Part shown: piece by piece, positions 24,140-37,007 of the stretch
How positions within the stretch are numbered: position 1 is the stretch's first letter
How the letters are laid out: each line of letters opens with the position of its first letter
Assembly (NCBI GenBank): GCA_037445065.1
Contig: JBBILD010000003.1
Coordinates: forward strand, 128,001 to 192,000
Origin: Myxococcales bacterium
Lineage (GTDB): Bacteria > Desulfobacterota > Binatia > HRBIN30
DNA length: 64,000 nt
Direction of reading: 5' to 3'
Position numbers and translations under genes: made by a program
Notes under the pieces: model-generated
Seen by the model: the letters and a program-made list of their open reading frames with translations, nothing else
What the model was told of the DNA's origin: nothing
The model's database searches: none

Positions 24140-24254
24140 GGTTTCCTGACGGGACCGGCCGAGACGTGGGATGCCCGAAAACCGCTGGGGCGCCCGAGCG
24201 GGCGATGGCGTTTGCGGCGCATCCCTCCGTTTCGCATGCCGGTCGTCAGGAACC
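24140..24254. other. Extended rod-like inverted-repeat structure (candidate structured RNA or miniature element)
   Basis: Nested helices TTCCTGACG/CGTCAGGAA, ACCGGC/GCCGGT, CGAGACG/CGTTTCG, GGGATGC/GCATCCC and CGCCC/GGGCG. Confidence 0.5.
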
Positions 24255-24439
24255 GAGAGGCTAGATACGCAGGGTTGCGAGGGGTTCCACGAGCGCGGCG
24301 TTTGCTGTGCCCCAAAGCCCCAATTTTTCTTCTCTGGCTGCTTGCCTCGCTCGGCCGCTACGCGGTAGGCGCAGCCCGAGCTGCTGAGCGGAAGGGGGGC
24401 GCGAAGCGAGCGCGCGGAACTCGCGGAAGGAGCGTCACA

Positions 24440-26812
24440 ATGGCTCGTCAGGGGCAAGTGGAGCGAAAGATCGGGCTGGGAGGGCTTTGCGTCATTGCTG
24501 CGATGTTCGTGGCGCAACTTGGCGTCCACTCGGCGGGGGCAATCCAATGTAGCGGCGGAGAGACCGACGGATTTTCTTGCGACGATGGCAATCCCTGCAC
24601 GGTGGGCGACGTGTGCTGGAACCAGCAGTGCCAACCGGGCTCTGTTGCCACAGGCAACGCGTGTGACGATGGAGACGTATGTACGATCGGTGAGAGCTGC
24701 CAGTCGGACGGTTCGTGCGGTGGGGGAAGCATCAACGGTGCGTGCGGTTGCTGCGAGTTCACCAGTAATACGGGGGGCGGTGAGTTCGGAACTTGCACCT
24801 CGCCGGTGACCGAGGAGGATTGCGAGCAGGAGCTAGGAGGGTTCTTTGAACAAGGGGGCATTTGCAATACGCAGTCAGGCGTTTGCCAGGCTGGCGGCGA
24901 GTGTGGGAACGGGCAGGTGGAGGGGTTCGAACAGTGCGACGACGGCAACCAAGAAAGTGGCGACTGCTGCGACGCGAGCTGCCAGTTCGAATCGCAAGGC
25001 GCAGCCTGCAAGGATGGCAACCCATGCACACTCAACGATTCTTGCGACGGGTCTGGCATTTGCACCGGGGGCAGTGCAAACCCGCAGTGTGGTTGCTGCG
25101 AGTTCGGTCTCCTTTCGAGCGTCTTCGATTCGTCAGCGCGGACGCTCGAGGGCGCCTGCGAGGCCCCGGTGGAGGAACAGTCTTGCCGCGATTCGCTGGG
25201 GGAGTTCTTCCAGGGGGCGAGTTGCAATCTGGAACTCGGCACGTGTGAATTAGCCGCGGTTTGCGGCAACGGGACGGTCGAGATCGGTGAACAGTGCGAC
25301 GACGGAAACCTGGAGAACGGAGATTGTTGCGACTCCTCCTGCCAGTTTGAGGAGCTGGAAAGCCCTTGCAGCGACGGAAATGCTTGCACCGACGAGGACT
25401 ATTGCAACGGCGAAGGGACCTGCGTCTCTGGCGTTCCCGTAAGCTGCAACGATTCCAACGAGTGCACGACGGACGTGTGCGATCCGCAGCAGGGGTGTAC
25501 CTTTACTCCGAATAACGATCCGTGCGACGACGGGAATGCGTGTACGTTCGATGATACCTGCTCCGACGGCCAGTGCATTGGCACGCTGGTCTCCTGCCAG
25601 CCGCCGGTCCCGCCGTGCGAGTCCGGCGAGTTTTGCAACCCGAGCAGCGGCTTGTGTGAAGCTCTACCTGACGCGCCCACCACGGTTCCATGCGAACTGG
25701 ACCAGAACGTCTGCACGGTAGACCGCTGTGATGGCAACGGTTCGTGTCAGTTCGTGGAAAACGCCGAGGCTGGCACGCCGTGCGACGACGGATTGTTCTG
25801 TAACGGCCTGGGCGACACATGCGACGGATCGGGTCAATGCCAGCATCCGGGGGACCCCTGCTCGGGTGGGAGCGAGTGCAGCCGGACTTGCAATGAGGCG
25901 GCGGACAACTGCTTTGACCCGGTTGGAACGCCGTGCAGCGAGGATGGGTTGGTGTGCACGGCGGATCAATGCGACGGGTCGGGGATCTGTGGCCACACGC
26001 AGGTGCCGGTGAGCCAATGCCCGAAGGGCTACGTGATCTTGGAGGCGCCTGCATCGGCAACAGTCAATGCGGAAGTTGCCTACACCTCACAGGTCAAGGG
26101 CGGTTCGGCATGCGCGGAAAACGTACGGCTCCGACAGGCGTCGCTGCTGGATGGAAACGCGATCGGGCCGAGTGGCGTGAGGGTCGGAAAGGATGCTGTG
26201 GCAAGCGGCATGTGTGTCACTGCCGGTGCGAGCGTGATTCTTGGCGTGAACGCGCAGTGTCTGGCGGGTACCGACACGAGTGGCACGCATACGTTGCTAA
26301 GCGATTGTTCAGGCGCATCGGACTTGGCGGAACAGCGGAGGCAGATGCTGCTCGCTCTGAGTGCGGATCAGAGTTTGGGGTCGGTCACCGTTGGAACGAG
26401 TGCCACGCATGACATCACTCCGTTCAGCACGGCACCTGGTGACGTGGTGGTGATTGACTACGATTCGCTTACGATCAAACCGAACCGTACCCTCACGATC
26501 AAAGGGAACGCGAACACGGCGGCGGTGGTCATTCGCATCTCAGGGAATCTGCGCGTACGCCTGAACGGGAAGATCGTTACGCAGGGCATCCCCGCAGGCC
26601 CGGGGGGATCTCCGGCTGAGCGCGTGCTGTTTTTGGTAGGGGGAACGGCGGAGCTTCGGCGGATTGCGGAGGTGCAGGGCACGATTTTCTCCCAAGGTAC
26701 GCTCACCGTCCGCCGGGACGCGCAGGTGACCGGTGCGCTGGTCAGCGCTGCTTCGCCCTTGCGGGTGCGACCATCGGTGGAAGTCGTCCACGCGCCGTGG
26801 GTACTGTGGTAG
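24440..26812 (+). CDS. Large secreted cysteine-rich repeat protein (myxococcal Cys-rich/DUF4215-like and CDDGNxCT repeats) with a C-terminal beta-rich domain
   Basis: SD GGAAGGAG, signal peptide, CGNGxVExxEQCDDGNxxxGDCC twice, many CDDGNxCT units and a Cys-poor C-terminus. Confidence 0.85.
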   Translation: MARQGQVERKIGLGGLCVIAAMFVAQLGVHSAGAIQCSGGETDGFSCDDGNPCTVGDVCWNQQCQPGSVATGNACDDGDVCTIGESCQSDGSCGGGSINGACGCCEFTSNTGGGEFGTCTSPVTEEDCEQELGGFFEQGGICNTQSGVCQAGGECGNGQVEGFEQCDDGNQESGDCCDASCQFESQGAACKDGNPCTLNDSCDGSGICTGGSANPQCGCCEFGLLSSVFDSSARTLEGACEAPVEEQSCRDSLGEFFQGASCNLELGTCELAAVCGNGTVEIGEQCDDGNLENGDCCDSSCQFEELESPCSDGNACTDEDYCNGEGTCVSGVPVSCNDSNECTTDVCDPQQGCTFTPNNDPCDDGNACTFDDTCSDGQCIGTLVSCQPPVPPCESGEFCNPSSGLCEALPDAPTTVPCELDQNVCTVDRCDGNGSCQFVENAEAGTPCDDGLFCNGLGDTCDGSGQCQHPGDPCSGGSECSRTCNEAADNCFDPVGTPCSEDGLVCTADQCDGSGICGHTQVPVSQCPKGYVILEAPASATVNAEVAYTSQVKGGSACAENVRLRQASLLDGNAIGPSGVRVGKDAVASGMCVTAGASVILGVNAQCLAGTDTSGTHTLLSDCSGASDLAEQRRQMLLALSADQSLGSVTVGTSATHDITPFSTAPGDVVVIDYDSLTIKPNRTLTIKGNANTAAVVIRISGNLRVRLNGKIVTQGIPAGPGGSPAERVLFLVGGTAELRRIAEVQGTIFSQGTLTVRRDAQVTGALVSAASPLRVRPSVEVVHAPWVLW

Positions 26813-27564: not shown

Positions 27565-27593
27565 GTGAAAATGATTATCAAAATCGTTACAGA
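27565..27593 (+). promoter_or_regulatory. Fur box overlapping the predicted promoter of the heme-uptake operon
   Basis: GAAAATGATTATCAAAATC (27567-27585) matches 15/19 to GATAATGATAATCATTATC (16/19 on the reverse strand). It lies inside GTGAAA-N17-TACAGA. Confidence 0.8.
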
Positions 27594-27762
27594 CCAGCTC
27601 CGATGGGCCACGAGAGGAGAAGAAAGAGAAGTTGGGGCTCGGTAATCGCATTTCGGGGAGGACAGCTACGTCGAAGCCGATTGCGGCGATTGCGCTCGGA
27701 GGCCGGTGCCCGGTGCGCGTGAGGTGGGCGGCTGTGTCGCCAACAGCGGTTGGGATTGAACG

Positions 27763-27975
27763 ATGAGCGAGGCATCGAGTGGGAAGCGTGATCCTGCTTT
27801 CGTTGGCGGGCCGGGGGATGTCCGTTGTTGCTGCGGCAGTTTGCTTGCTCGGCTGCTGAAGGATGGAGTCGAGCTCAAGTGCCGCCGATGCAAGCGCATT
27901 GTGTTTCTGGATTTCAGAGGAGAGCTCGTTGTGAAGGAGCGTTCACCGCCGGACAGAGGCGTTTCTTCGACTTGA
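27763..27975 (+). CDS. Mu Com-like zinc-ribbon protein (70 aa)
   Basis: DVRCCCGSLLARLLKDGVELKCRRCKR matches the Com-family pattern RCxxCxxLL...ExKCxRC. Confidence 0.72.
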   Translation: MSEASSGKRDPAFVGGPGDVRCCCGSLLARLLKDGVELKCRRCKRIVFLDFRGELVVKERSPPDRGVSST

Positions 27976-27992
27976 CTTTGTTTCCGCGGCCC

Positions 27993-28057
27993 GAGGTCAC
28001 GAACCCAGAGCCCACGTGATTTTCTGACTTTGACAACACATTTGGAGGGTTCGATGA
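27993..28057 (+). promoter_or_regulatory. Putative two-state translational RNA switch (tandem GARNNCA motifs, anti-SD helix)
   Basis: GAGGTCA-c-GAACCCA-GAGCCCA. TCACGAACCC (27997-28006) pairs with GGGTTCG-A-TGA (28047-28057). The alternative hairpin is GAGGTCACG/CGTGATTTT. Confidence 0.5.
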
Positions 28058-29205
28058 GAGTTCGGAAAAGACCGTTCGTACTAAGTTTGTGGGCTGTGAC
28101 TGTGATGCTTCTCGCGCCACAAGCGGAGACGCGCGCAGACACTCTGGTGATCGACGATCAAACCCCGGGCACGGTATATGATGCGATCTTGGATGGTTAC
28201 CCTGGGTTTTTCACCCAGGACGGAATGCCGGACGCTGGCAACAACAATTTGGCGGTTGCCTTGAAGGCTGGCGCTACTGAGTTGCGCAGCATCGCCGAGT
28301 TTCCTCTTTCTCCGCTAGCAGGCCGGACCTCAGCGGATGTCTTGTCGGCGAAGTTGCGTTTTAATGTGGACGACGTTTTGGGGTTTCTGGGTGCACCGCT
28401 CAGCGGCTGCGCGCCTGAGAATATCGCGGTGTGGGTACGGGCTGGTGACGGTGCGATTCCTCTTTCCGACTTCATCGTAACGGGCCCGCCTACCGCTGTA
28501 GTGAACACGGGCCTGAGTTGCTCAATCACCGATACGACCCTGGGCAGCACGGGTCCTGTGATCTTTGAGGTCACGGTGACCTCCGCCTTGAAGGACCTCC
28601 TGGAGGCAAATGCGCAGTTCGCCAATGTTGTCTGGGCAACGAACTCTGACAACACAGGTGCCTCGATGGACGACTTGGGGCTGGACAGTTCTGGGCCTCC
28701 TGGGGTTCGCGGTGCCCGCATGCCCTATCTGGTCATTGAGTTAGCGGAACTGCCTCCCCCCTCGCTGGATGCGAAGACCCGGCGGTGCCAGCGGACTGTG
28801 ACAACACACGCTCTAAGCTTAGAGAGTCTTGTGCAGCGGCAGCTCGCTGCGTGCAGCGATCGTGTGCTCAACGACTCCGCTGCCGGGAAACCGCTGACGA
28901 AGGCAACGGATTTCTGCGCTGCGCGCTTGTCGTGGATACCCGTTGACAATTCGCGAGTGTGGAAATGGCGCGGCGCGGCGGAGGCGGCGATCCGCAAGGC
29001 GTGTGCTCCGCCGGTCGTGCTGACCGATTTAGGCCCGCCTTGTGATCAAAATATCGTGGATGAAACTGCGCTGGCGACCTGCGTTTTGGACCAGGCACTG
29101 CAAAGTGCTCAGAGAACGTTCCGCCGCTCTAACGCGCTGATTTGTCGTACCTTGACGGCAGTGGGGCTGAACCTCCAGTACCCAAACGCTTGCTCGCTGA
29201 ACTGA
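28054..29205 (+). CDS. Secreted protein of unknown function: N-terminal beta-sandwich-like domain plus Cys-linked helical C-terminal domain
   Basis: SD GGAGG and signal peptide (ends TRA-D). N-domain is paralogous to the next gene. Confidence 0.85.
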   Translation: MRVRKRPFVLSLWAVTVMLLAPQAETRADTLVIDDQTPGTVYDAILDGYPGFFTQDGMPDAGNNNLAVALKAGATELRSIAEFPLSPLAGRTSADVLSAKLRFNVDDVLGFLGAPLSGCAPENIAVWVRAGDGAIPLSDFIVTGPPTAVVNTGLSCSITDTTLGSTGPVIFEVTVTSALKDLLEANAQFANVVWATNSDNTGASMDDLGLDSSGPPGVRGARMPYLVIELAELPPPSLDAKTRRCQRTVTTHALSLESLVQRQLAACSDRVLNDSAAGKPLTKATDFCAARLSWIPVDNSRVWKWRGAAEAAIRKACAPPVVLTDLGPPCDQNIVDETALATCVLDQALQSAQRTFRRSNALICRTLTAVGLNLQYPNACSLN

Positions 29206-29284
29206 GTGAGCGCGTGCCGTCAGCCCCGGGGCCGTGTCGTGAGTGCGGCGGCACAGCCCCGGCTCCCTGATCCGGAGGTCAGAG

Positions 29285-30271
29285 ATGAGAGGAAGTTTCG
29301 CCTTGGTTCTTGGGTTGTTGGTAACGGCAGTTTCGCACTCCGTCCATGGGGAAGCAGTGCGCATTGGCGAATCCGATGGTGCGTTGTATGATGGAATCTT
29401 TGACGGGTACCCTGGCATAGCGTTGTTCGACGGAACCCCTGATCTGACGAACAACCCCCCCTCCGTGGCGCTCAAATTTGGGGTGCTGGAAATGCGAACG
29501 GTAGCGGAGTTCCCGTTACCTGCAGTAGCCGGAAAACGCCTCAGCGGCGCCGACCGAGTCGTACTTCACTTCAACATCGACGATGTAATTCCCACGTTCG
29601 GGCCGGGCGCGGAATTCTCTGGACGAGCGGCAAGCACAATTCTTGTGCACCCGTATTGCGGCGACGGAGCCACTGCTCTCGATGACTCCCTACAGGTCGG
29701 CGCTGCTGCGTTCGAAGTGGATACTACACCCTTCGGAGTCATCACAGACGAGACCCTCGCTCGATCCGGTCCGCTGTTTTTTGAACTCGACGTCACCGAG
29801 GCGGTGGTTGATCTCTTGGCCGAAGGCTGCGCGTGGCTCGGATTTGTTTTTCGGACCACGACGAACAACACGGCGACTTCGATTGATGACCTCGGGGACG
29901 GAGGCAGCTACGGCGGCACAAAAGGAGCTGGGGGAGCCAGTCTACCCTCTTTGGAGTGGTTTTTCTCGGCGGAAGCGCCGCCAACTCTAACCACTACAGT
30001 GGAGCCTGTCGCCAGCCCGACACTCAGCCCTACGCCGACAGCGCGCAGCGAGGGACCGAGCGAAACACCGACAACAACGCCGGCGTGCGCCGGTGACTGC
30101 AACGGCGACTCGGCAGTGACGATCGACGAGGTGTTAGTTCTTGTTCGGATTGCCCTCGGCCTTGGGAGCCCAGACTCGTGCGTTGCTGGGGACCTCGATC
30201 GGAGCGCCGATATCACCGTCGACGAGATCATCGTGGCCGTGACTGCAGCGCTTTTGGGTTGCCAACCGTGA
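29285..30271 (+). CDS. Secreted paralog with Pro/Thr linker and dockerin-like C-terminal domain
   Basis: SD GGAGG, signal peptide, PT-rich linker, CAGDCNGDSAVTIDEV...GDLDRSADITVDEI...GC. Confidence 0.85.
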   Translation: MRGSFALVLGLLVTAVSHSVHGEAVRIGESDGALYDGIFDGYPGIALFDGTPDLTNNPPSVALKFGVLEMRTVAEFPLPAVAGKRLSGADRVVLHFNIDDVIPTFGPGAEFSGRAASTILVHPYCGDGATALDDSLQVGAAAFEVDTTPFGVITDETLARSGPLFFELDVTEAVVDLLAEGCAWLGFVFRTTTNNTATSIDDLGDGGSYGGTKGAGGASLPSLEWFFSAEAPPTLTTTVEPVASPTLSPTPTARSEGPSETPTTTPACAGDCNGDSAVTIDEVLVLVRIALGLGSPDSCVAGDLDRSADITVDEIIVAVTAALLGCQP

Positions 30272-32538
30272 CGGGGACGTTTCGTCGTGTTGGCTGGGAA
30301 TTCGCTCCGCGGGTGTTGCCGGTGTTGTTGCTGTGGTTTGTGCACAGCCGCGAGGCCATTGGTGACCCGCAGCTCCGGCGAGAGTCGTATGTGTTGGAGG
30401 AAATCGTCGTGCAAGACGAAGCGGCAGCAGTTGAGGTGTCCCGCTCCGTGCTTCCGGCGCAGGAAATCACCCGGGACACCCTGGAGACGACGTCGGTAGT
30501 GGATCCGGAAGACGCGCTCGAGTTCGTGCCAGACTTGTACATTCGCCGAAACGAACCCTTTCGCCTAGGCGCGAGTACGGTTCGCTTGCAGGGTGCCGAC
30601 CCGAACAAGACGGCCGTCCTCATCAATGGCAAGCGGATGCTTGGTGGGGTGGATGGCGTGGTAGACTTGAGAGACATCCCCGCCGTACTGCTCGACCGGG
30701 TTGAGCTGCACCGTGGTGTAGCGGGAGGGTTTGTGGATAGCGAGGCCATGGCGGGCAGCATCAACATCGTGACCCGCACCCCCAAGGAGCAGCCTGAGTG
30801 GACAGCCACCGCGGCAGGGGGCTCGTTCGACCGCATATTCGCCGGCGCTTCGCACTCGTACCGATGGCGCGGGCTCGCATACCTGGTGGCTTACGAACAC
30901 GATGAACTCGCGCTCGCTCGGCAGTTCGGAGCGATCAGCCGCCAGTTCGAAGGTTCCGGATCGGATGCCAAACAGACGCGAGACAACGTCTTCTTGCATG
31001 CGGCTTTCGATGCGACTGACCGACACCAAATTTCGAGCACGATCCATTTTCTGCCAGTGCGGGAAGGACCGCTCAGTCGCCGCCTCAATGTGACTACGGA
31101 TGTGGGCTGGAGAGGGCGCTTCCCCGGACCCACGGAGGTGCACTTGTCGGCTGGCCGCTTTGGGTTTGATCGGAGGAACGATCTGGCTGGATTCGAAGAA
31201 GACGTTGCCTTCGAGCAGTGGTTCGGGGAGGCCCGCGCGGCGCTGGCGCCGTGGATCGTTTTGGATTCGCATCACAGCATCGAGGCGGCCTACCGCTTCC
31301 GGCTCCCCAGTTTGCGACTCGCTGCCGGGGGACTTCGCGAGGCGGCGACTTCGCTCGCTTCGCCTCCCGGAGTGGCGGAGAGTACCAGCCTTCAGAGTTG
31401 TGCACTGCGTTATGATTGGTCGGACTTGGGGCAGTGGTCGGCGAGTGCAGGAACCAACTTCGATTTGCATTCCTTGTTCGGACTCGAGGTCAATCCAAGG
31501 GCCGTGGTCACCTTTCGCCCGACCGATCGGTTCCGGCTCAGTGTGGGAGTTGGGCGGGGATTTCGCGCTCCGGATTTACTGCAGTTATTCGACGCGGATT
31601 TGAACAACGCAGTGCCTGTAGGGAATCGTCCTATCGGTTACGCGATTCTCGGCGACCGCACCCTGCGGCCAGAAATCGATTTAGCAACCAATGTGGACTT
31701 GACTTGGTGGCCGGCCTCTTGGTTACGGGTACAATCGAACCTATTCCGCCACGATTTTCGCGACTTAATCGATGTCGTTTTGCGGTGTACAGGTCCCCAA
31801 CAGTGCGCCGCCGGCTTCACGCATCCGTTCCCCACGCTGGTCGGACAAGTGTTCCAGTACGCCAACGTGTCCGAGGCAGAGAGCGCTGGTGCTGACCTCT
31901 CTTTGGAAATCTCTTGGAGCGCCTTTGGACGAAACGGTCGGCCGCCGCTGACGGGCAGTTTCGGCCTCAATTACGGGTACCTGTATTCACGGAATGACTC
32001 CGAGCGGCCCGGGGAGAAGGGGAAGGAGCTGCCGTTTCGACCTCCGCACCGTTTCATTCCAAGCTTGTTCGTTCGCGATGAAGGAAGCGGTGCGAGCGGG
32101 CGCTTTTGGGCGGAGTACGACGACCGAGTGTTCACGGACCTTGTTAACAGTGCAACTGGCATTGCTCGCGCTCATTGGATCCTGAACGCTCGGTTCGAAT
32201 GGTCGCCCAGTCCTTGGTTCGAGGTTGGCCACGCCAACGGATTGAAGTCGCTGCTGGCTAACTCGAGCGTATTTTTGGAGGGGAGCAATTTGCTGGACAC
32301 CGAGTTCGGAGCCCCGGTCCGCTCACGCGAATGGCGGGTAGACGTAGCCTCTTGTTCGGGATCCGCACACAACGATGACGTTTCGACTCGGTCGCCCATT
32401 GCCGTTTGTGCCCGTGTCCGTCCTGACCCACGCGTTGGCCTTGCTATGGCTGAGCAGAGTTGGGTTCGTAACTTTGCAGGCCTACGAGGACCCCATTCGC
32501 GTCATCATCGTCGCGGGAGGTACGCATCGAGAGCCTGA
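30268..32538 (+). CDS. TonB-dependent receptor (probable heme/iron receptor) with an apparent frameshift near the 3' end; natural stop probably at 32378
   Basis: TonB box EEIVV, plug VLING...RVELHRG...GSINIVT, GFRAP. GTGA overlap with the upstream stop. Confidence 0.88.
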   Translation: MTGTFRRVGWEFAPRVLPVLLLWFVHSREAIGDPQLRRESYVLEEIVVQDEAAAVEVSRSVLPAQEITRDTLETTSVVDPEDALEFVPDLYIRRNEPFRLGASTVRLQGADPNKTAVLINGKRMLGGVDGVVDLRDIPAVLLDRVELHRGVAGGFVDSEAMAGSINIVTRTPKEQPEWTATAAGGSFDRIFAGASHSYRWRGLAYLVAYEHDELALARQFGAISRQFEGSGSDAKQTRDNVFLHAAFDATDRHQISSTIHFLPVREGPLSRRLNVTTDVGWRGRFPGPTEVHLSAGRFGFDRRNDLAGFEEDVAFEQWFGEARAALAPWIVLDSHHSIEAAYRFRLPSLRLAAGGLREAATSLASPPGVAESTSLQSCALRYDWSDLGQWSASAGTNFDLHSLFGLEVNPRAVVTFRPTDRFRLSVGVGRGFRAPDLLQLFDADLNNAVPVGNRPIGYAILGDRTLRPEIDLATNVDLTWWPASWLRVQSNLFRHDFRDLIDVVLRCTGPQQCAAGFTHPFPTLVGQVFQYANVSEAESAGADLSLEISWSAFGRNGRPPLTGSFGLNYGYLYSRNDSERPGEKGKELPFRPPHRFIPSLFVRDEGSGASGRFWAEYDDRVFTDLVNSATGIARAHWILNARFEWSPSPWFEVGHANGLKSLLANSSVFLEGSNLLDTEFGAPVRSREWRVDVASCSGSAHNDDVSTRSPIAVCARVRPDPRVGLAMAEQSWVRNFAGLRGPHSRHHRRGRYASRA

Positions 32539-33142
32539 GCCGGCTTCCGAGACATTGCCGTCTGGGGATCCTCGGCTGCCCTCGTCAGACGGCGCGAGCG
32601 GAAACCTCAAGGCCAGTGAGGTGGTAAAGCCGGTGGCAAAGCCGAGAACGAAGAGCAACGCTCGAGATGCTCGAGTTGTCTCGCGCCGCAAGCGTGAAAA
32701 GGAAAGAACTTGGCAGGCGCCGGTTCCGGAAAAGACGGAAGGGGCATTGGGCAATGGAGTTGCGGACGCCATTGGGAGCACCGGTGGGGAAAAGACCGGG
32801 GGCGGTTACGGCCAAGCCGATTCGGGTCGGTCCGGAGAACCCACAGACGCGGTAGGTCGGTACCTGCGTGCGGTACGGGCTTTGATCGACGCGCGCAAGC
32901 GCTATCCAGAGGAGACGCGGCGTACTGGTATCGAGGGCGTGGCCGTCCTTGCCTTTGTGATCGAACAGGACGGTCGACTCGCGGATCTCAAGGTTCTGTC
33001 GGCTGATGACCGGCTGTTTGCCATGGCGGCACTTGCAGCAGTGAAGGATGCCGCGCGCTGGATCGGACCTCCCCCAGCGGGCCAGCCGATGCCCGTCCAA
33101 GTGTCTCTTCGGTTCGAGTTAACGGAGAGGAGGAGACGTTGA
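32375..33142 (+). CDS. tonB: Energy transducer TonB
   Basis: N-terminal TM with SVLTHAL. C-terminal KRYPEETRRTGIEGVAVLAFVIEQDG...FEL. Confidence 0.85.
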   Translation: MTFRLGRPLPFVPVSVLTHALALLWLSRVGFVTLQAYEDPIRVIIVAGGTHREPEPASETLPSGDPRLPSSDGASGNLKASEVVKPVAKPRTKSNARDARVVSRRKREKERTWQAPVPEKTEGALGNGVADAIGSTGGEKTGGGYGQADSGRSGEPTDAVGRYLRAVRALIDARKRYPEETRRTGIEGVAVLAFVIEQDGRLADLKVLSADDRLFAMAALAAVKDAARWIGPPPAGQPMPVQVSLRFELTERRRR

Positions 33143-34053
33143 TGTTTCTGGTAGTGCGCGGAAGAGGAGCGGTTGGGGTCGTTCTCTCGAGTCTTTCCTT
33201 GGTGGTTGCGCCGAGCCCCGCCCGTGGGGGTCAGCTCGACTACGTTCCGAGTCGGATCGTCGCGATTGGGCCGTGGGTCACGAAGATTCTCTTTGAACTA
33301 GGTGCCGGTGACCGAGTGGTTGGAGTGGACTCGGCAAGCACCAGTCCCCGGGCTGTGCGCGCGAGGCCGAAGGTCGGGTACTTTCGCAGTCTGACGGTGG
33401 AGGGCCTCCTGGCGCTCGAACCTCAATTGATCTTGGCAATCAACGAGGCCGGTCCTCCCGAGGTCTTCGAGCAGGTCCGCGCGGCAGGAGTTAAGCTTAT
33501 GCAACTCCCTCCGCTAAAAAATGTTTCGGTTGCCAGCGAGGCTATTCGAAAGGTGGGGGTGGCAATCGGGCGAGAGGAGGAGGCCGTTCAGCTCGCCAAG
33601 CGGTTGGTCAGTAGGCTGGAGTCGCTACGAAAGCACGCTGACCGTGTGGCCGAGCGGCCGCGAGTGCTCCTGTTGTTCGCTCCCACTGCGCATACGTTGC
33701 TCATTGCCGGACGCGACACCGTGTCCGACCTTCTGATTCGTTTTGCAGGGGCGCAGAACGCAGCAGAATCGATTGTCGGCCTGAAAGCGTTAGGTGCCGA
33801 GGGGATCCTAGCCAGCAAGCCTGAGTGGATTTTAGTAACGGAGCACACCTTGCGTACTCTCGGAGGCGAAAAGGGGCTGTGGTCCCTGCCAGCGATTGCT
33901 CGCACCCCAGCGGCGGAGCAACAGCGCTTGTTCGTCGGCAGTGACGGGGGGCTGCTCGCTCCAGGACCGAGCTTTGTGCGGTGCGCGGAAGCACTATCCC
34001 ACCGTTTGCACGGCGAAGCTAGCGGCAGCGATTCATGTACTGGGGGAGATTGA
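33139..34053 (+). CDS. hmuT: Hemin ABC transporter substrate-binding protein
   Basis: RIVAIG, VVGVDSAS and VGYFRSLTVEGLLAL (heme-ligand Tyr as in HmuT/PhuT), plus operon context. Confidence 0.85.
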   Translation: MMFLVVRGRGAVGVVLSSLSLVVAPSPARGGQLDYVPSRIVAIGPWVTKILFELGAGDRVVGVDSASTSPRAVRARPKVGYFRSLTVEGLLALEPQLILAINEAGPPEVFEQVRAAGVKLMQLPPLKNVSVASEAIRKVGVAIGREEEAVQLAKRLVSRLESLRKHADRVAERPRVLLLFAPTAHTLLIAGRDTVSDLLIRFAGAQNAAESIVGLKALGAEGILASKPEWILVTEHTLRTLGGEKGLWSLPAIARTPAAEQQRLFVGSDGGLLAPGPSFVRCAEALSHRLHGEASGSDSCTGGD

Positions 34054-34054
34054 G

Positions 34055-35110
34055 ATGCAATCTTTACGGATCCAGCGTTCGGTAAGGGCTGGAGCAATTT
34101 TGCTCATTGTGACCTTGAGTTCGCTGGCGGCGTCTTCGTTGCTGGTCGGTCCAAAGAGCATTCGTTGGCACGAAGCGATGAGCGCAGTGTTTCCAGGAGC
34201 ATCCGGGAGGACAGGCAGTGATCTCGAATTGACCCGTTACGTTCTCCTGCACCTGTGCTTGCCGCGCACGCTTCTAGCGCTGGGCGTGGGCGTGGCGCTG
34301 GCCCTGGCAGGGACGGTGTTGCAGGCCCTATGGCGCAACGCTCTGGCGGATGCGGGGGTCCTGGGCATCAGCACCGCAGCAGCCCTCGGCGCGGCTACAA
34401 CTTTGGTCGGTTTACCGCACTTAGAGAGCGTTCCGTTCGTGCCTGGTTACCTCCACGTAGCCCTCGGGGCTTTTCTGTTCGCGGCTGGTACCATCGCGCT
34501 TCTGTACCGATTGTCGCAGCGGGCCTGCGGCACGAGCCTCGCAACGCTTTTGCTTTTGGGAATCGCCTTCAATGCAGCGGGATCAGGCCTCCTCGGTTTG
34601 CTGCTGTTTGTTGCTTCGGACGCCCAACTGCGGGCTCTCACCTTTTGGACTCTGGGAAGTGTGGCCGGAGCCACCTGGACAGTGACTGCGAGCCTATGGG
34701 CAGCCCTCGGCTGTCTCGCTCCGCTGAGTTGGCGTCTTCGCTGGGCGCTCGATGCGCTCCTGCTCGGAGAGAGCAATGCGTTTTACCTTGGGTGGGAGCC
34801 GCGGCCGATCAAGCGGGCTGCGATATGGAGCGCGGCGACACTGGTTGCGGTTGCGGTGGCTGCGGTCGGGCCAATTGCGTTTGTGGGACTGATTGTGCCC
34901 CATTTCCTCCGGTTGGTGGTGGGGCCCAGCCATGCAGTGCTCCTGCCCGCATCCGCGATCGGTGGGGCGGCGTTCGTTCTCGGCTGTGATGTGCTTGCTC
35001 GGTGTATCGTGAGCCCGGCCGAACTGCCCCTCAGCGTGATTACCGCCGGTCTTGGCGGGCCAATGCTGCTGGTCCTTTTGCTGAACCGCTCCGCGGCGGA
35101 GGGCTTGTGA
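34055..35110 (+). CDS. hmuU: Hemin ABC transporter permease (FecCD family)
   Basis: LPRTLLA, QALWRNALAD, WTLGS, LGESNAFYLG, GPIAFVGLIVPH, AELPLSVIT. Confidence 0.9.
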   Translation: MQSLRIQRSVRAGAILLIVTLSSLAASSLLVGPKSIRWHEAMSAVFPGASGRTGSDLELTRYVLLHLCLPRTLLALGVGVALALAGTVLQALWRNALADAGVLGISTAAALGAATTLVGLPHLESVPFVPGYLHVALGAFLFAAGTIALLYRLSQRACGTSLATLLLLGIAFNAAGSGLLGLLLFVASDAQLRALTFWTLGSVAGATWTVTASLWAALGCLAPLSWRLRWALDALLLGESNAFYLGWEPRPIKRAAIWSAATLVAVAVAAVGPIAFVGLIVPHFLRLVVGPSHAVLLPASAIGGAAFVLGCDVLARCIVSPAELPLSVITAGLGGPMLLVLLLNRSAAEGL

Positions 35111-35976
35111 TGCTGGAGGCGCGACAGGTGCGATTTGGTTTTGCTGCGAGACCCCTCCTATTCGGTGTGAGTCTCGAGCTGGGGCCTGGGGATTTGCTGG
35201 GGCTCGTGGGCCGGAATGGCTCTGGCAAGTCGACGCTTCTGAGGATTTGCGCTGGGGAACTTCGGCCATCTGACGGGGAGGTTGTGTTGGAAGGGCGCCC
35301 TCTCTCGCTATGGGAGCCGGAAGCGCGGGCGCGCCGGGTCGGTGTACTTTCGCAAGAACAGCCCCTCTCCTTCCCTTTCCGCGTACGCGAAGTTGTTCAG
35401 CTTGCGTGGGCTGCAAGAAGGATTCGTTCTGGCCCCGAGGCTGCCACCACCGTGGACATGCTGCTTGATCGTTTTGATTTAGGGGGGCTGGCCGACCGGC
35501 CGTACACACACCTTTCCGGGGGGGAGCGGCAACGCACGCACATCGCGCGCGTCCTGGCCCAAGTTTGTGTGGAGCGCCCATGGGAACGTCGCTACCTGTT
35601 GCTCGACGAGCCGACGAATCACCTCGACCTTCGGTTTCAGTTGGTTTTGCTGGAGACTCTGCGCGAACTAGCCCGAGAAGGCGTGGGCATTCTAGTCGTG
35701 ACCCACGATGTGGTGTTTCTTTCGCAGTGCGTCGAGCAGGTCTTCCTGATGGAGTGCGGGCGCATTTTGGCCGCTGGGCCGCCGAGCGGGGTCCTGCAAA
35801 GCCCGATTAGCCAGCTCGTCTTTGGTGTTCGCTTTCTATGTGTCGAGCCGGCCCGATCGGATGGTAAGCGCGGGGAACTCGTTGTGCCGGATATGACCCG
35901 GGGCAAGCAGCCCTGGCAAAAAGGAGAAACGAATGCAGAGAGCGGAAACGTCTTGGGACTTGCGACAAGGATGTGA
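35110..35976 (+). CDS. hmuV: Hemin ABC transporter ATP-binding protein
   Basis: GRNGSGKST, LSGGERQR, ARVLAQ, LLLDEPTNHLD. Confidence 0.9.
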   Translation: MLEARQVRFGFAARPLLFGVSLELGPGDLLGLVGRNGSGKSTLLRICAGELRPSDGEVVLEGRPLSLWEPEARARRVGVLSQEQPLSFPFRVREVVQLAWAARRIRSGPEAATTVDMLLDRFDLGGLADRPYTHLSGGERQRTHIARVLAQVCVERPWERRYLLLDEPTNHLDLRFQLVLLETLRELAREGVGILVVTHDVVFLSQCVEQVFLMECGRILAAGPPSGVLQSPISQLVFGVRFLCVEPARSDGKRGELVVPDMTRGKQPWQKGETNAESGNVLGLATRM

Positions 35977-37007
35977 GGACGTTGTAAGGCGCGAGCGGTT
36001 GCGCACGATAGATGCGGCACAGCGCCTCGGCGTCTCTGAACTGGAGCTGCTCGATGCTTACCCGGAATGCGTCCACCGGCTGACTGGGGAGTTCAATCGA
36101 ATCTTTTCCACTCTCGGAGAAATCGGGCCCTTGCTGGCAATCACACGCAACGCGCATGCCGTACTGGAATGCAGCGGCCTTTATACGCCATTTGCGTATT
36201 CGGAGGAGAACTCCCTCGTGCTCGGCGAGGCGGTAGACTTGCGCTTGTCCATTCGCCGCTTCGCTCATGCCCGCCTGGTTGACTGGCTGAACCCGTTTCG
36301 GATTCCTGCAGGTGTTCTTTTCTTCGATGAACCGGGCCGAGCCATCCACAAGGCCTTCTTTACGGCAGACACTTCGGCGGATGCGGCCGACGTCGTTCTT
36401 GAACGATTCGCCCTCGATCCGAGGGTCGCGGCGGCGCCCGGAGCGCCGGGTGGAGCGACAGCCAACACCTGAAGTGCCATCCCGCCCTTTGTCCGCTGTA
36501 GCGGTAGATGCAGAGGAAGTTCGAAAAGCTTGGTCCGAGATGCGGGACACGCACGACATTGCGCCGCTGTTGCAACGGTTGCGTTTGTCCAGGATCGAGG
36601 CCTTGCGGCTTCTTGCCCATGATTGGGCCTGGCCGGCCCATCCACATTCCATGTGGTTCCTCATACAGGAGCTGGCTGGGACAGGTTTGCCGATCATGGT
36701 CTTTGTCGGAAATCATGCAGTCACGCAGATTTACAAGGGGCCAATCGAGCGACCGGTGATGGCGGGGACTTGGTGGAACGTATTGGACCGTCGCTTTAAT
36801 CTGCACGTGGAAGCTTCCGGGCTGGGCGAGAGTTGGGTTGTCCGGAAGCCAGTGCCAGAGGGAGCTGTGACGAGTTTGGAAGTATTCGATCGGTCCGGCG
36901 AACTGGTGTTGCTTGTCTTTGCGCGGCGTGGGGTCGGACAGCCTGAGCCCGAAGAGTGGCGGGAACGGTTACGGGCGATCGTAAGGGCAGTGGGCGACGG
37001 CGTTTAA
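35933..37007 (+). pseudogene. hmuS: HemS/HmuS/ChuS heme-degradation/trafficking gene, split across two frames
   Basis: Frame 1 (35933-36472) has RTIDAAQRLGVSELELL, ITRN, DLRL, FFDEPGRAIHK. The +1 frame (to 37007) has WSEMRDTHD, PIMVFVGN, WWNVLDRRFNLH, WVVRKP, VTSLEVFD, EEWR. Confidence 0.8.

Follow-up and report, generated by a model that had tools for sequence, protein, structure and literature searches.

A small zinc-ribbon protein distantly resembling phage Com and a conserved RNA hairpin as a putative second gate beneath Fur on bacterial iron operons

The first gene of a Fur-controlled iron-uptake operon in a Myxococcales bacterium (GTDB lineage Bacteria; Desulfobacterota; Binatia; HRBIN30) encodes a 70-amino-acid (aa) protein with four invariant cysteines, and it is followed by a conserved RNA hairpin that, in the genome sets we searched, was detected only where the gene is present. 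We consider it probable that the two work together as a protein-stabilised anti-terminator or anti-sequestering hairpin beneath Fur. The window, by which we mean the whole stretch of 64,000 nucleotides (nt) that was analysed (assembly GCA_037445065.1, contig JBBILD010000003.1, positions 128,001 to 192,000 of the forward strand), holds the operon between its positions 27565 and 37007. Control of iron uptake in bacteria is generally attributed to Fur, joined in some lineages by small RNAs. The initial annotation of this DNA, made from the letters alone, had proposed a haem-uptake operon with a Com-like RNA-binding switch under Fur repression; the present analysis retains the putative RNA-level layer and widens the setting from haem to iron operons at large.

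In the mechanism that we favour, iron limitation would cause Fur to leave its operator, and the resulting transcript would first encode the basic Cys4 zinc-ribbon protein. Immediately past that gene, or ahead of the iron operon that follows, the transcript could fold in two ways, either into a weak 33-nt hairpin with a Com-type CC(N)2GAG element or into an alternative in which the 3' half of the hairpin pairs downstream, giving an intrinsic terminator or a helix over the ribosome-binding site. The protein would bind and stabilise the hairpin and thereby permit read-through or translation of the downstream iron-uptake genes, which would amount to a second, RNA-level gate beneath Fur. We infer the binding of RNA by the protein and the direction of the effect, and any dependence on metal would likewise be an extrapolation from the observations set out below.

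A conserved hairpin downstream of the gene

Homologous loci were collected by a one-genome-per-species scan that gave 301 pattern matches, 278 of them confirmed by tblastn, from which the best 80 were taken with 10-kb flanks; seven more loci from relatives of the window genome, with flanks of only 1.5 kb, brought the total to 87. The RNA element was found by k-mer enrichment, not by thermodynamic tests. The word CCAGAGCC is present in 28 of 86 regions spanning the 170 nt past the gene's stop, where word counting predicts 0.6, and the zone from -10 to +200 holds 30 copies on the gene's strand and none on the opposite strand. The element comprises 6 to 8 base pairs in about 33 nt and takes the form GGC / C-(A/C)-G-(A/C) / 3-nt stem arm / loop of 4-8 nt / 3-nt arm / CAGA / GCC; in the window its core (27988-28012) reads GGC-CCGA-GGU-loop-ACC-CAGA-GCC.

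The inner stem is conserved as a pairing rather than as a sequence. Of 35 distinct instances collected without regard to pairing, 34 form every one of the three inner pairs and one forms two, while the single instance on the opposite strand has none of the three; the inner arms are GGU/ACC (17), GAC/GUC (4), GAU/AUC (2), GGC/GCC and G.U variants. In the seed alignment A6 (36 sequences), which leans towards structure because its members were chosen with a pairing rule, 14 double-changed cells were counted against 4.5 +/- 1.6 in shuffles (0 of 500 reaching the observed value), and slid partners pair in 6-63% of cells. RNAalifold returned the same helices plus two invariant pairs within the loop. 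Matches outside the seed (34, of which 30 distinct), similarly inclined because alignment A7 is model-fitted, are paired in 99.4% of cells and carry 21 double-changed cells against 5.6 +/- 4.1 (0 of 500), one of them an A-U of the outer helix. When compared with the 4227 Rfam models, the window region had no match at E<=1 and eight loci had none at gathering score; L013 gave chance-level hits only (E 3.6 and 4.6).

In its commonest form, the invariant 3' half reads CC-CA-GAG-CC and thus contains the Com-type CC(N)2GAG element, and a second element, (A/C)G(A/C)G, lies across the 3-bp variable stem. In a study of phage Mu Com, selection experiments (SELEX) with a Com finger yielded GAG(N)2CC and CC(N)2-3GAG, mostly bipartite around a variable stem of 3-4 nt, and an accessible GA is crucial (PMC6483171). 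We treat this likeness between the motif and the RNA element of Com as a lead.

Co-occurrence of hairpin and gene

Genome searches with a covariance model of the hairpin (R1) tie the motif to the gene. Among 41 relatives of the window genome, the gene is present in 16, usually as a single copy (two copies in one genome), and the motif was detected in 11 of these 16 and in none of the 25 genomes lacking the gene. Among 151 genomes drawn evenly from the phylum, the motif is present in three of the eight that carry the gene and in none of the remaining 143. The window genome has a single R1 match, at 27984-28016 (E 3.4e-5), 12 nt past the stop of the gene. Wherever gene and motif share a contig, the motif lies downstream on the gene's strand, at a distance of tens to about 250 nt (1.2 kb in genome G149); in G013 the two stand at the ends of separate contigs, and G023 has two genes and two motifs. 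Across the 87 loci (1.28 Mb, both strands), 64 matches were obtained at E<=0.1, 63 of them on the gene's strand, in 55 loci. In loci where a convergent ferritin gene follows the small gene, the motif lies beyond the ferritin gene, about 0.8-1.3 kb further on, and precedes the next genes that run in the direction of the small gene.

Two or three copies of the motif are present in some loci (L053, L060, L062 and L079). In the first three of these they stand in series, at +34, +1957 and +2402 from the gene's stop in L053, at +42 and +749 in L060, and at +63 and +512 in L062. Each copy in these series has its own terminator, some with short open reading frames (ORFs) between them, and the arrays may be tandem attenuators.

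Such a distribution bears on whether the RNA might act by itself. The hairpin could be a small riboswitch for a metal ion or another ligand, with the zinc-ribbon protein an unrelated member of the Fur regulon, as would suit an aptamer-like conserved element that overlaps a terminator or a ribosome-binding site, and the four invariant cysteines could hold iron as well as zinc. However, the element has only 6 to 8 base pairs, it is absent from all 25 and all 143 genomes without the gene, it matches the element recognised by Com fingers (PMC6483171), and the core of the protein is both strongly basic and similar to Com. We regard a riboswitch as very improbable.

Structures competing with the hairpin

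The 3' half of the hairpin is shared with a second structure, of which there are two types. In the terminator type, seen in 19 of 40 distinct strict instances, the motif's 3' AGCC opens a 7-nt terminator arm. The complementary arm is found 14-75 nt further downstream, ahead of a stretch with at least 5 U in 8, and covariation between the arms extends past their invariant part (AGCCCGG/CCGGGCU, AGCCCAA/UUGGGCU, AGCCCGU/ACGGGCU). By a crude rule that accepts co-directional ORFs with a Shine-Dalgarno (SD) sequence and a minimum of 100 codons, an ORF starts past the U-run in 10 of these 19 cases, at a median of 31 nt (range 15-269), and none is detected in the other nine.

The SD type is represented by the window and by three relatives (G020, G008 and G039), all with genes of the secA type (encoding secreted protein A, described below) downstream and no terminator. 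In the window, CGAACCC (28000-28006) pairs with GGGUUCG (28047-28053) just before the secA-like ATG, and in the minimum-energy folds of this type the SD/AUG region is taken up by the 3' half of the motif. Three of the leaders form GAACCC/GGGUUC, with C-G, A-U and G.U as variants at the base of the helix, and in G039 CCAGAGC pairs with GCUCUGG. Because the 'off' structure uses the 3' half of the hairpin, the two are mutually exclusive. Constraining the four secA-type leaders to form the motif hairpin carries a penalty of 3.9 to 16.7 kcal/mol; the hairpin is thus too weak to win alone, which fits the need for a bound protein. The translational layer beneath Fur that the initial annotation had suggested is therefore upheld in part: an RNA element does compete with a helix covering the ribosome-binding site in the window, and in 19 of the 40 instances it is a terminator rather than translation that would be controlled.

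The compactness of the terminator-type units also invites a different explanation, namely that hairpin and terminator close a dual-function small RNA (sRNA) under Fur control at its 3' end, in which the exposed CCAGAGCC stretch pairs with other mRNAs and the small protein serves as a chaperone. Iron sparing of the RyhB or FsrA type provides a precedent, and FbpABC of Bacillus subtilis are Fur-regulated basic proteins. Fur box, short ORF, structured RNA and terminator form one short unit in the same 19 of 40 instances, the nine terminator cases without a downstream ORF of at least 100 codons by the crude rule would suit a free-standing transcript, and in 17 loci the small gene is followed by a convergent ferritin gene. 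Against this, nine of the 10 detected downstream ORFs start 15-58 nt past the U-run, which leaves no room for a promoter of their own; the window and its three relatives lack a terminator and use the motif to pair with the next gene's ribosome-binding site; and the ferritin-type loci have their motif past the ferritin gene, heading the next co-directional operon. An sRNA is, in our judgement, unlikely, and the gating hairpin remains the reading that we prefer.

A remote relative of the Com finger

A word-index search gave 922 homologs of the small protein at E<=0.01 among 945 candidates. Some of them are labelled 'phage FluMu protein Com' by JGI, and none has a precomputed Pfam domain; the 70-aa protein of the window itself matches neither a Pfam nor an NCBIfam family at E<=10. 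An alignment of 40 sequences shows an invariant core, R-C-x-C-G-x-L-L-A ... K-C-R-R-C-K-R, with variable ends. The core is strongly basic, and its invariant cysteines (C22, C24, C40 and C43) form two knuckles 15 residues apart. As in Com, whose knuckles are separated by about 16 residues, a four-cysteine finger at the N-terminus precedes a variable tail, except that the first knuckle is CxC. In the AlphaFold (AF2) model the core is a beta ribbon with a predicted local distance difference test (pLDDT) score of 72-87, against 65.7 for the whole protein.

Profile comparison provides the link to Com. Aligned with Mu Com (NC_000929), the family profile reaches an hhalign probability of 91.9% (E 7e-7) over 33 columns that span both knuckles, and its score of 36.5 compares with 12.6 +/- 3.1 (maximum 26.4) in 200 shuffles with the cysteines held fixed, none of which reach 36.5. 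These results suggest that the small protein is distantly related to the Com finger and lies outside the curated Pfam family. A sequence search of the PDB with the small protein gave no usable match, and a search for longer fused forms returned 10 singletons and no recurrent fusion. The initial annotation had remarked that no HemP/HmuP regulator was recognisable here, and the 70-aa protein indeed matches no hemP-type model in Pfam (E<=10) or NCBIfam. In five loci from Nitrospirota/Manganitrophaceae (L020, L023, L043, L065 and L066) the protein has a shared C-terminal extension, ENHPD.F...ITFDH, that is absent elsewhere; in the same loci fur stands directly upstream, after an Fe3+-type ABC transporter.

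The family heads iron operons at large

The loci carry labels that include Myxococcota, Candidatus Binatia, Nitrospirota (Manganitrophaceae), Acidobacteriota and Methylomirabilota. Neighbouring genes were compared by clustering all stop-to-stop ORFs all-against-all and scanning cluster representatives with Pfam; the clustering was single-linkage, and the 'ApbE/FMN_bind' and 'ABC_TOBE' clusters are loose. The recurrent neighbours are as follows.

FUR: 20 loci, directly upstream on the same strand
Ferritin-like: 17 loci, convergent, just downstream
DtxR-FeoA: 12 loci
FeoB: 10 loci
Di-haem oxidoreductase (DHOR): 8 loci
Fe3+-type ABC parts: 7 to 14 loci
ApbE/FMN-binding (loose cluster): 36 loci

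The initial annotation had made its proposal depend on homologs of the small gene lying at iron-uptake loci, and this association is borne out. A strict hand count (Fur, ferritin, Feo, DtxR, DHOR) finds an iron neighbour in 49 of 87 loci; a broad script count gives 66 of 88, a generous figure because the single-linkage clusters are loose. Within 450 nt upstream of the gene, a Fur box of at least 14/19 is present in 35 of 88 loci as against 6 of 705 background windows, and one of at least 13/19 in 44 of 88 as against 24 of 705. The haem setting that the initial annotation described is not the rule in the survey, in which cargo of the window type (secA/secB, receptor, hmu) adjoins the gene in just seven of 87 loci. 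The module is a genome-wide iron-regulon device, not one specific to haem uptake.

A frequent first gene downstream (19 + 3 loci) encodes a protein of 450-560 aa with a signal peptide and a coiled coil, porin-like by eye, that has no Pfam or NCBIfam match. It is the first gene after the motif in L004, L005, L007, L018, L023 and others, followed by ApbE/FMN-binding genes, and together these may constitute an undescribed iron-uptake module.

The same neighbourhoods could be taken to mean that the target of the small protein is protein or DNA, be it that it assists or antagonises Fur or that it promotes iron release from ferritin in a Bfd-like manner, and that the RNA motif is a lineage-specific leader feature. 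In 20 of 87 loci the gene stands directly behind a co-directional fur, with stop and start codons overlapping in L022 and L086, a ferritin gene adjoins it in 17, and CxC...CxxC resembles the pattern of Bfd, a protein that helps Bfr to release iron. The model of the core, however, is a beta zinc ribbon and not helical as in Bfd, its knuckles are 15 residues apart, no Pfam Fer2_BFD match was obtained, the ferritin genes are convergent and not co-transcribed, and a strand-specific, covarying RNA motif would be left unexplained. A complex prediction for a Fur dimer with the finger core scored 0.02 and is uninformative either way. We think a Fur or ferritin partner quite unlikely; a Bfd-like [2Fe-2S] protein in particular, considered for its CxC...CxxC pattern and ferritin neighbours, was set aside on account of the beta-ribbon model, the knuckle spacing and the convergent orientation of the ferritin genes.

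The operon of the window

All parts of the operon lie on the + strand in the order in which the initial annotation had listed them, from the Fur box and the 70-aa ORF through two secreted proteins and the TonB-dependent receptor to tonB and hmuTUVS.

27567-27585, no strand assigned: Fur box, palindromic operator, sequence GATTTTGATAATCATTTTC, 16/19 against the consensus
27763-27975, +: Cys4 zinc-ribbon protein, distantly Com-like, ORF of 70 codons
27984-28016, +: conserved RNA hairpin, match to covariance model R1, core at 27988-28012
28000-28053, +: alternative helix over part of the GGAGGG ribosome-binding site, from the minimum-free-energy fold
28054-29205, +: secreted protein A (secA-like), with signal peptide, CBM96-like beta-sandwich and Cys-rich helical bundle
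29285-30271, +: secreted protein B (secB-like), with paralogous beta-sandwich, Pro/Thr linker and Cys/Asp-rich C-terminal repeat
30287-32378, +: TonB-dependent receptor with two 1-nt gaps, Pfam Plug and TonB_dep_Rec_b-barrel
32375-33142, +: TonB, TonB_C (E 1.6e-14)
33139-34053, +: HmuT-like periplasmic binding protein, Peripla_BP_2 (E 3e-30)
34055-35110, +: HmuU-like permease, FecCD (E 1e-68), start codon by manual reading
35110-35976, +: HmuV-like ATPase, ABC_tran; haem ABC ATPase model NF010068 at 232.8 bits (cut-off 261)
35933-37007, +: HmuS/ChuS-like two-domain haem protein with a 2-nt gap near 36437, two HemS/ChuX domains

The Fur box agrees with the E. coli consensus at 16 of 19 positions. 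It is the sole site in the window with three mismatches or fewer, 0 of 100 shuffles yield one, and it is the top match in the 3.79-Mb genome, where runner-up sites score 14; the genome has two genes of the Fur family. The box shows no listed difference in the strain variants X2-X4, in which flanking intergenic positions do differ. The overlaps at start and stop codons that had been reported are present as well: tonB and hmuT overlap by 4 nt and, read by hand, the natural stop of the receptor gene overlaps the tonB ATG as ATGA and hmuU and hmuV share 1 nt. A complete Hmu/Chu-type gene set (receptor, TonB, class-III binding protein, FecCD permease, ATPase and HemS/ChuS) is thus united in one Fur-controlled operon, whose gene order is the same and intact in G020 and G008. 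The assignment to 'haem' comes mainly from the HemS-type gene, since the ATPase model scores below its cut-off and the NCBIfam models for the receptor all score far under theirs.

The flanks within about 13 kb are of housekeeping type (CysRS, GAPDH, PGM, glucokinase, GluRS and an aminotransferase), and no phage genes were seen among the 16 flanking ORFs scanned, in agreement with the initial annotation. An 866-aa, Cys-rich secreted repeat protein with DUF4215 and Dicty_CTDC repeats and an ice-binding-like adhesin domain is encoded upstream (24212-26812, +), ending about 750 nt before the Fur box.

The two secreted proteins are paralogous, as had been supposed (41% identity over 207 aa, E 2e-39), and each has, as judged by eye, a signal peptide that lacks a lipobox. 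The AF2 model of protein A (pLDDT 82) matches CBM96 modules over residues 26-231, with Z 15.0 for 8wab (165 aligned) and Z 13.3 for 7vbo (161 aligned), the next unrelated folds reaching Z <=9.7 and Foldseek giving E 4e-7; the protein Atlas offers the same CBM96 lead with a score of 0.86-0.87. The fold matches share 10-12% identity, and neither protein has a Pfam match at E<=10, including to CBM96 (PF24517). That negative also covers the known haemophores HasA, HmuY and NEAT, which the initial annotation had likewise failed to recognise. Asp, Gly, Glu, Thr and Pro make up most of the invariant columns in 14 aligned sequences, and His, Tyr, Met and Cys are absent from them; a haemophore role is therefore unsupported, given this and the CBM96-like fold. 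Close homologs of protein A are labelled Candidatus Binatia, and proteins of the A/B type accompany this type of receptor in G020, G008, L014 (three copies), L033 and L061. We conclude that A and B are real partners of the receptor.

Out of 1.84 billion, an exhaustive profile search retrieved just 227 representatives at E<=0.001, and in many of these the match is confined to the Cys-rich helical domain at the C-terminus of protein A. This bundle (28771-29205, residues 240-383 of A) is the C-terminal module of otherwise different proteins of 300-1000 aa. To the eye, the C-terminus of protein B (30070-30271) resembles a dockerin or an EF hand, having two repeats rich in Asp with Cys residues at their borders.

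Reading-frame gaps in the source population

Both the receptor gene and hmuS are distributed over more than one reading frame in this strain. The longest ORF of the receptor as the sequence stands runs from 30178 to 32538; its last beta-strand and stop are in a different frame than in G020 and G008, and the two HemS domains, which share a single frame in G020, G008 and L044, are here in separate frames. Public contigs aligned to the region from a close strain, X2, have one additional base after 30298, which is four codons into the receptor gene when counted from its natural GTG start (30287), and another after 32311, and X2, X3 and X4 all have two additional bases (TG) after 36437; the figures for X3 and X4 are identical and possibly represent one data set. 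An independent assembly, X1, likely from the source sample, equals the window over all 9,601 bases. This identity indicates that the source population truly carries the three gaps, which disrupt the receptor gene and hmuS, and the operon may be decaying there.

In X2, one contig (depth 5.2) joins 33279 to 35418, which would remove hmuT, hmuU and the start of hmuV, a weak observation from a single contig, and there is no coverage over 33599-35203. The contig depth of 83-125 at 35525-35845 in X2-X4 coincides with the conserved ABC-ATPase core, which attracts short contigs of other organisms, and so is not a genome feature.

Relation to known systems

Com of phage Mu, 62 aa in length, combines a Cys4 finger at its N-terminus with a tail that is disordered, and it binds a short hairpin beside the structure that inhibits translation of mom (PMC6483171). 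Both systems have a small Cys4-finger protein with a variable tail, encoded just upstream of its target (a predicted one in the system described here), and a hairpin with CC(N)2-3GAG beside a structure that hides start signals (PMC6483171). They differ in that our family is cellular, with a CxC first knuckle and no Pfam match, that its RNA motif covaries and is not found in Mu, that the cargo is iron-uptake genes under Fur instead of a DNA-modification gene, and that termination is the probable point of control in the terminator-type instances.

Among haem operons, the closest functional parallel is HemP/HmuP/ChuP, likewise the first gene of a Fur-repressed haem-uptake operon. ChuP is reported to bind haem and is proposed to have a positive post-transcriptional effect on receptor genes (PMC9131926). 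There is no sequence relation: the protein studied here has a Cys4 ribbon, and its family also heads iron operons unrelated to haem.

Two further comparisons concern the mode of control and the cargo. The layout recalls HutP of the Bacillus hut operon, an RNA-binding protein encoded by the first gene, whose downstream site overlaps a terminator and whose binding permits read-through; here too a first-gene protein is paired with a site just downstream that overlaps a terminator, whereas the protein fold and the RNA site are unrelated. Proteins A and B share the fold of CBM96 in their common N-terminal domain and differ from that family in lacking a Pfam CBM96 match and in being encoded with a TonB-dependent receptor under Fur. 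No description of the protein family or of the RNA was found in the literature searched, with subscription journals and supplements outside its scope.

Weighing the evidence

Several observations weigh against a Com-type gate. On the protein side, the Pfam model Zn_ribbon_Com (PF10122, cut-off 22.9 bits) matches 0 of 40 family members at E<=10, a six-frame search of the genome with it missed the locus and gave three weak matches elsewhere, the best E obtained by tblastn among 50,697 phage records was 0.2, and the first knuckle is CxC rather than CxxC. The Com-like nature claimed by the initial annotation thus holds at the level of profiles, given the hhalign result and the shuffles, and fails in the Pfam search by which it was to be checked, where the Mu-like Com model did not match the 70-aa protein even at E<=10. 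On the RNA side, R1 gave a best match of 6.1 bits (E 1.4) in the Mu com-mom region, on the other strand, and both covariation alignments have the lean described above. The window leader is no more stable than its shuffles (z = +1.40, with 190 of 200 folding at least as well), and the 110 nt past the gene have a mean z of just -0.67 over the 87 loci; the 5' untranslated region (UTR) folds with z = +0.58. The 'structured leader' of the initial annotation accordingly lacks unusual stability, and it is the conserved motif within it that lends the term substance. Lastly, five of the 16 gene-bearing relatives have no R1 match at E<=0.01, three of them having weaker matches with long insertions, and 32 of the 87 loci have none at E<=0.1 on the gene's strand in the DNA examined. 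The cultured Anaeromyxobacter strains L026 and L048 carry the gene and likewise lack an R1 match at E<=0.1.

We nevertheless hold a protein-stabilised hairpin beneath Fur to be the probable explanation. A more far-reaching version seems to us unlikely: in it, the Cys4 site would bind iron or lose its metal with the iron supply, RNA binding itself would sense iron, finger and hairpin would form an undescribed post-transcriptional iron sensor in series with Fur in at least five phyla, and phage Mu would have captured its Com from this cellular family.

Implications

A Com-type protein-RNA pair, until now a lone phage curiosity, would on this evidence be a conserved putative second gate on iron operons in large lineages, most of them uncultured. 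Both partners have gone unannotated, the protein being without a Pfam or NCBIfam family and the RNA, a new 33-nt hairpin with a covarying stem, without an Rfam match, and the annotation of hundreds of genomes would improve with their inclusion. With a 30-residue core on one side and a 33-nt hairpin on the other, the pair offers a small model for recognition between zinc fingers and RNA, and the paired CBM96-like secreted proteins with their receptor represent a further unexplored uptake module. The finding also raises the question of which signal the second gate would read.

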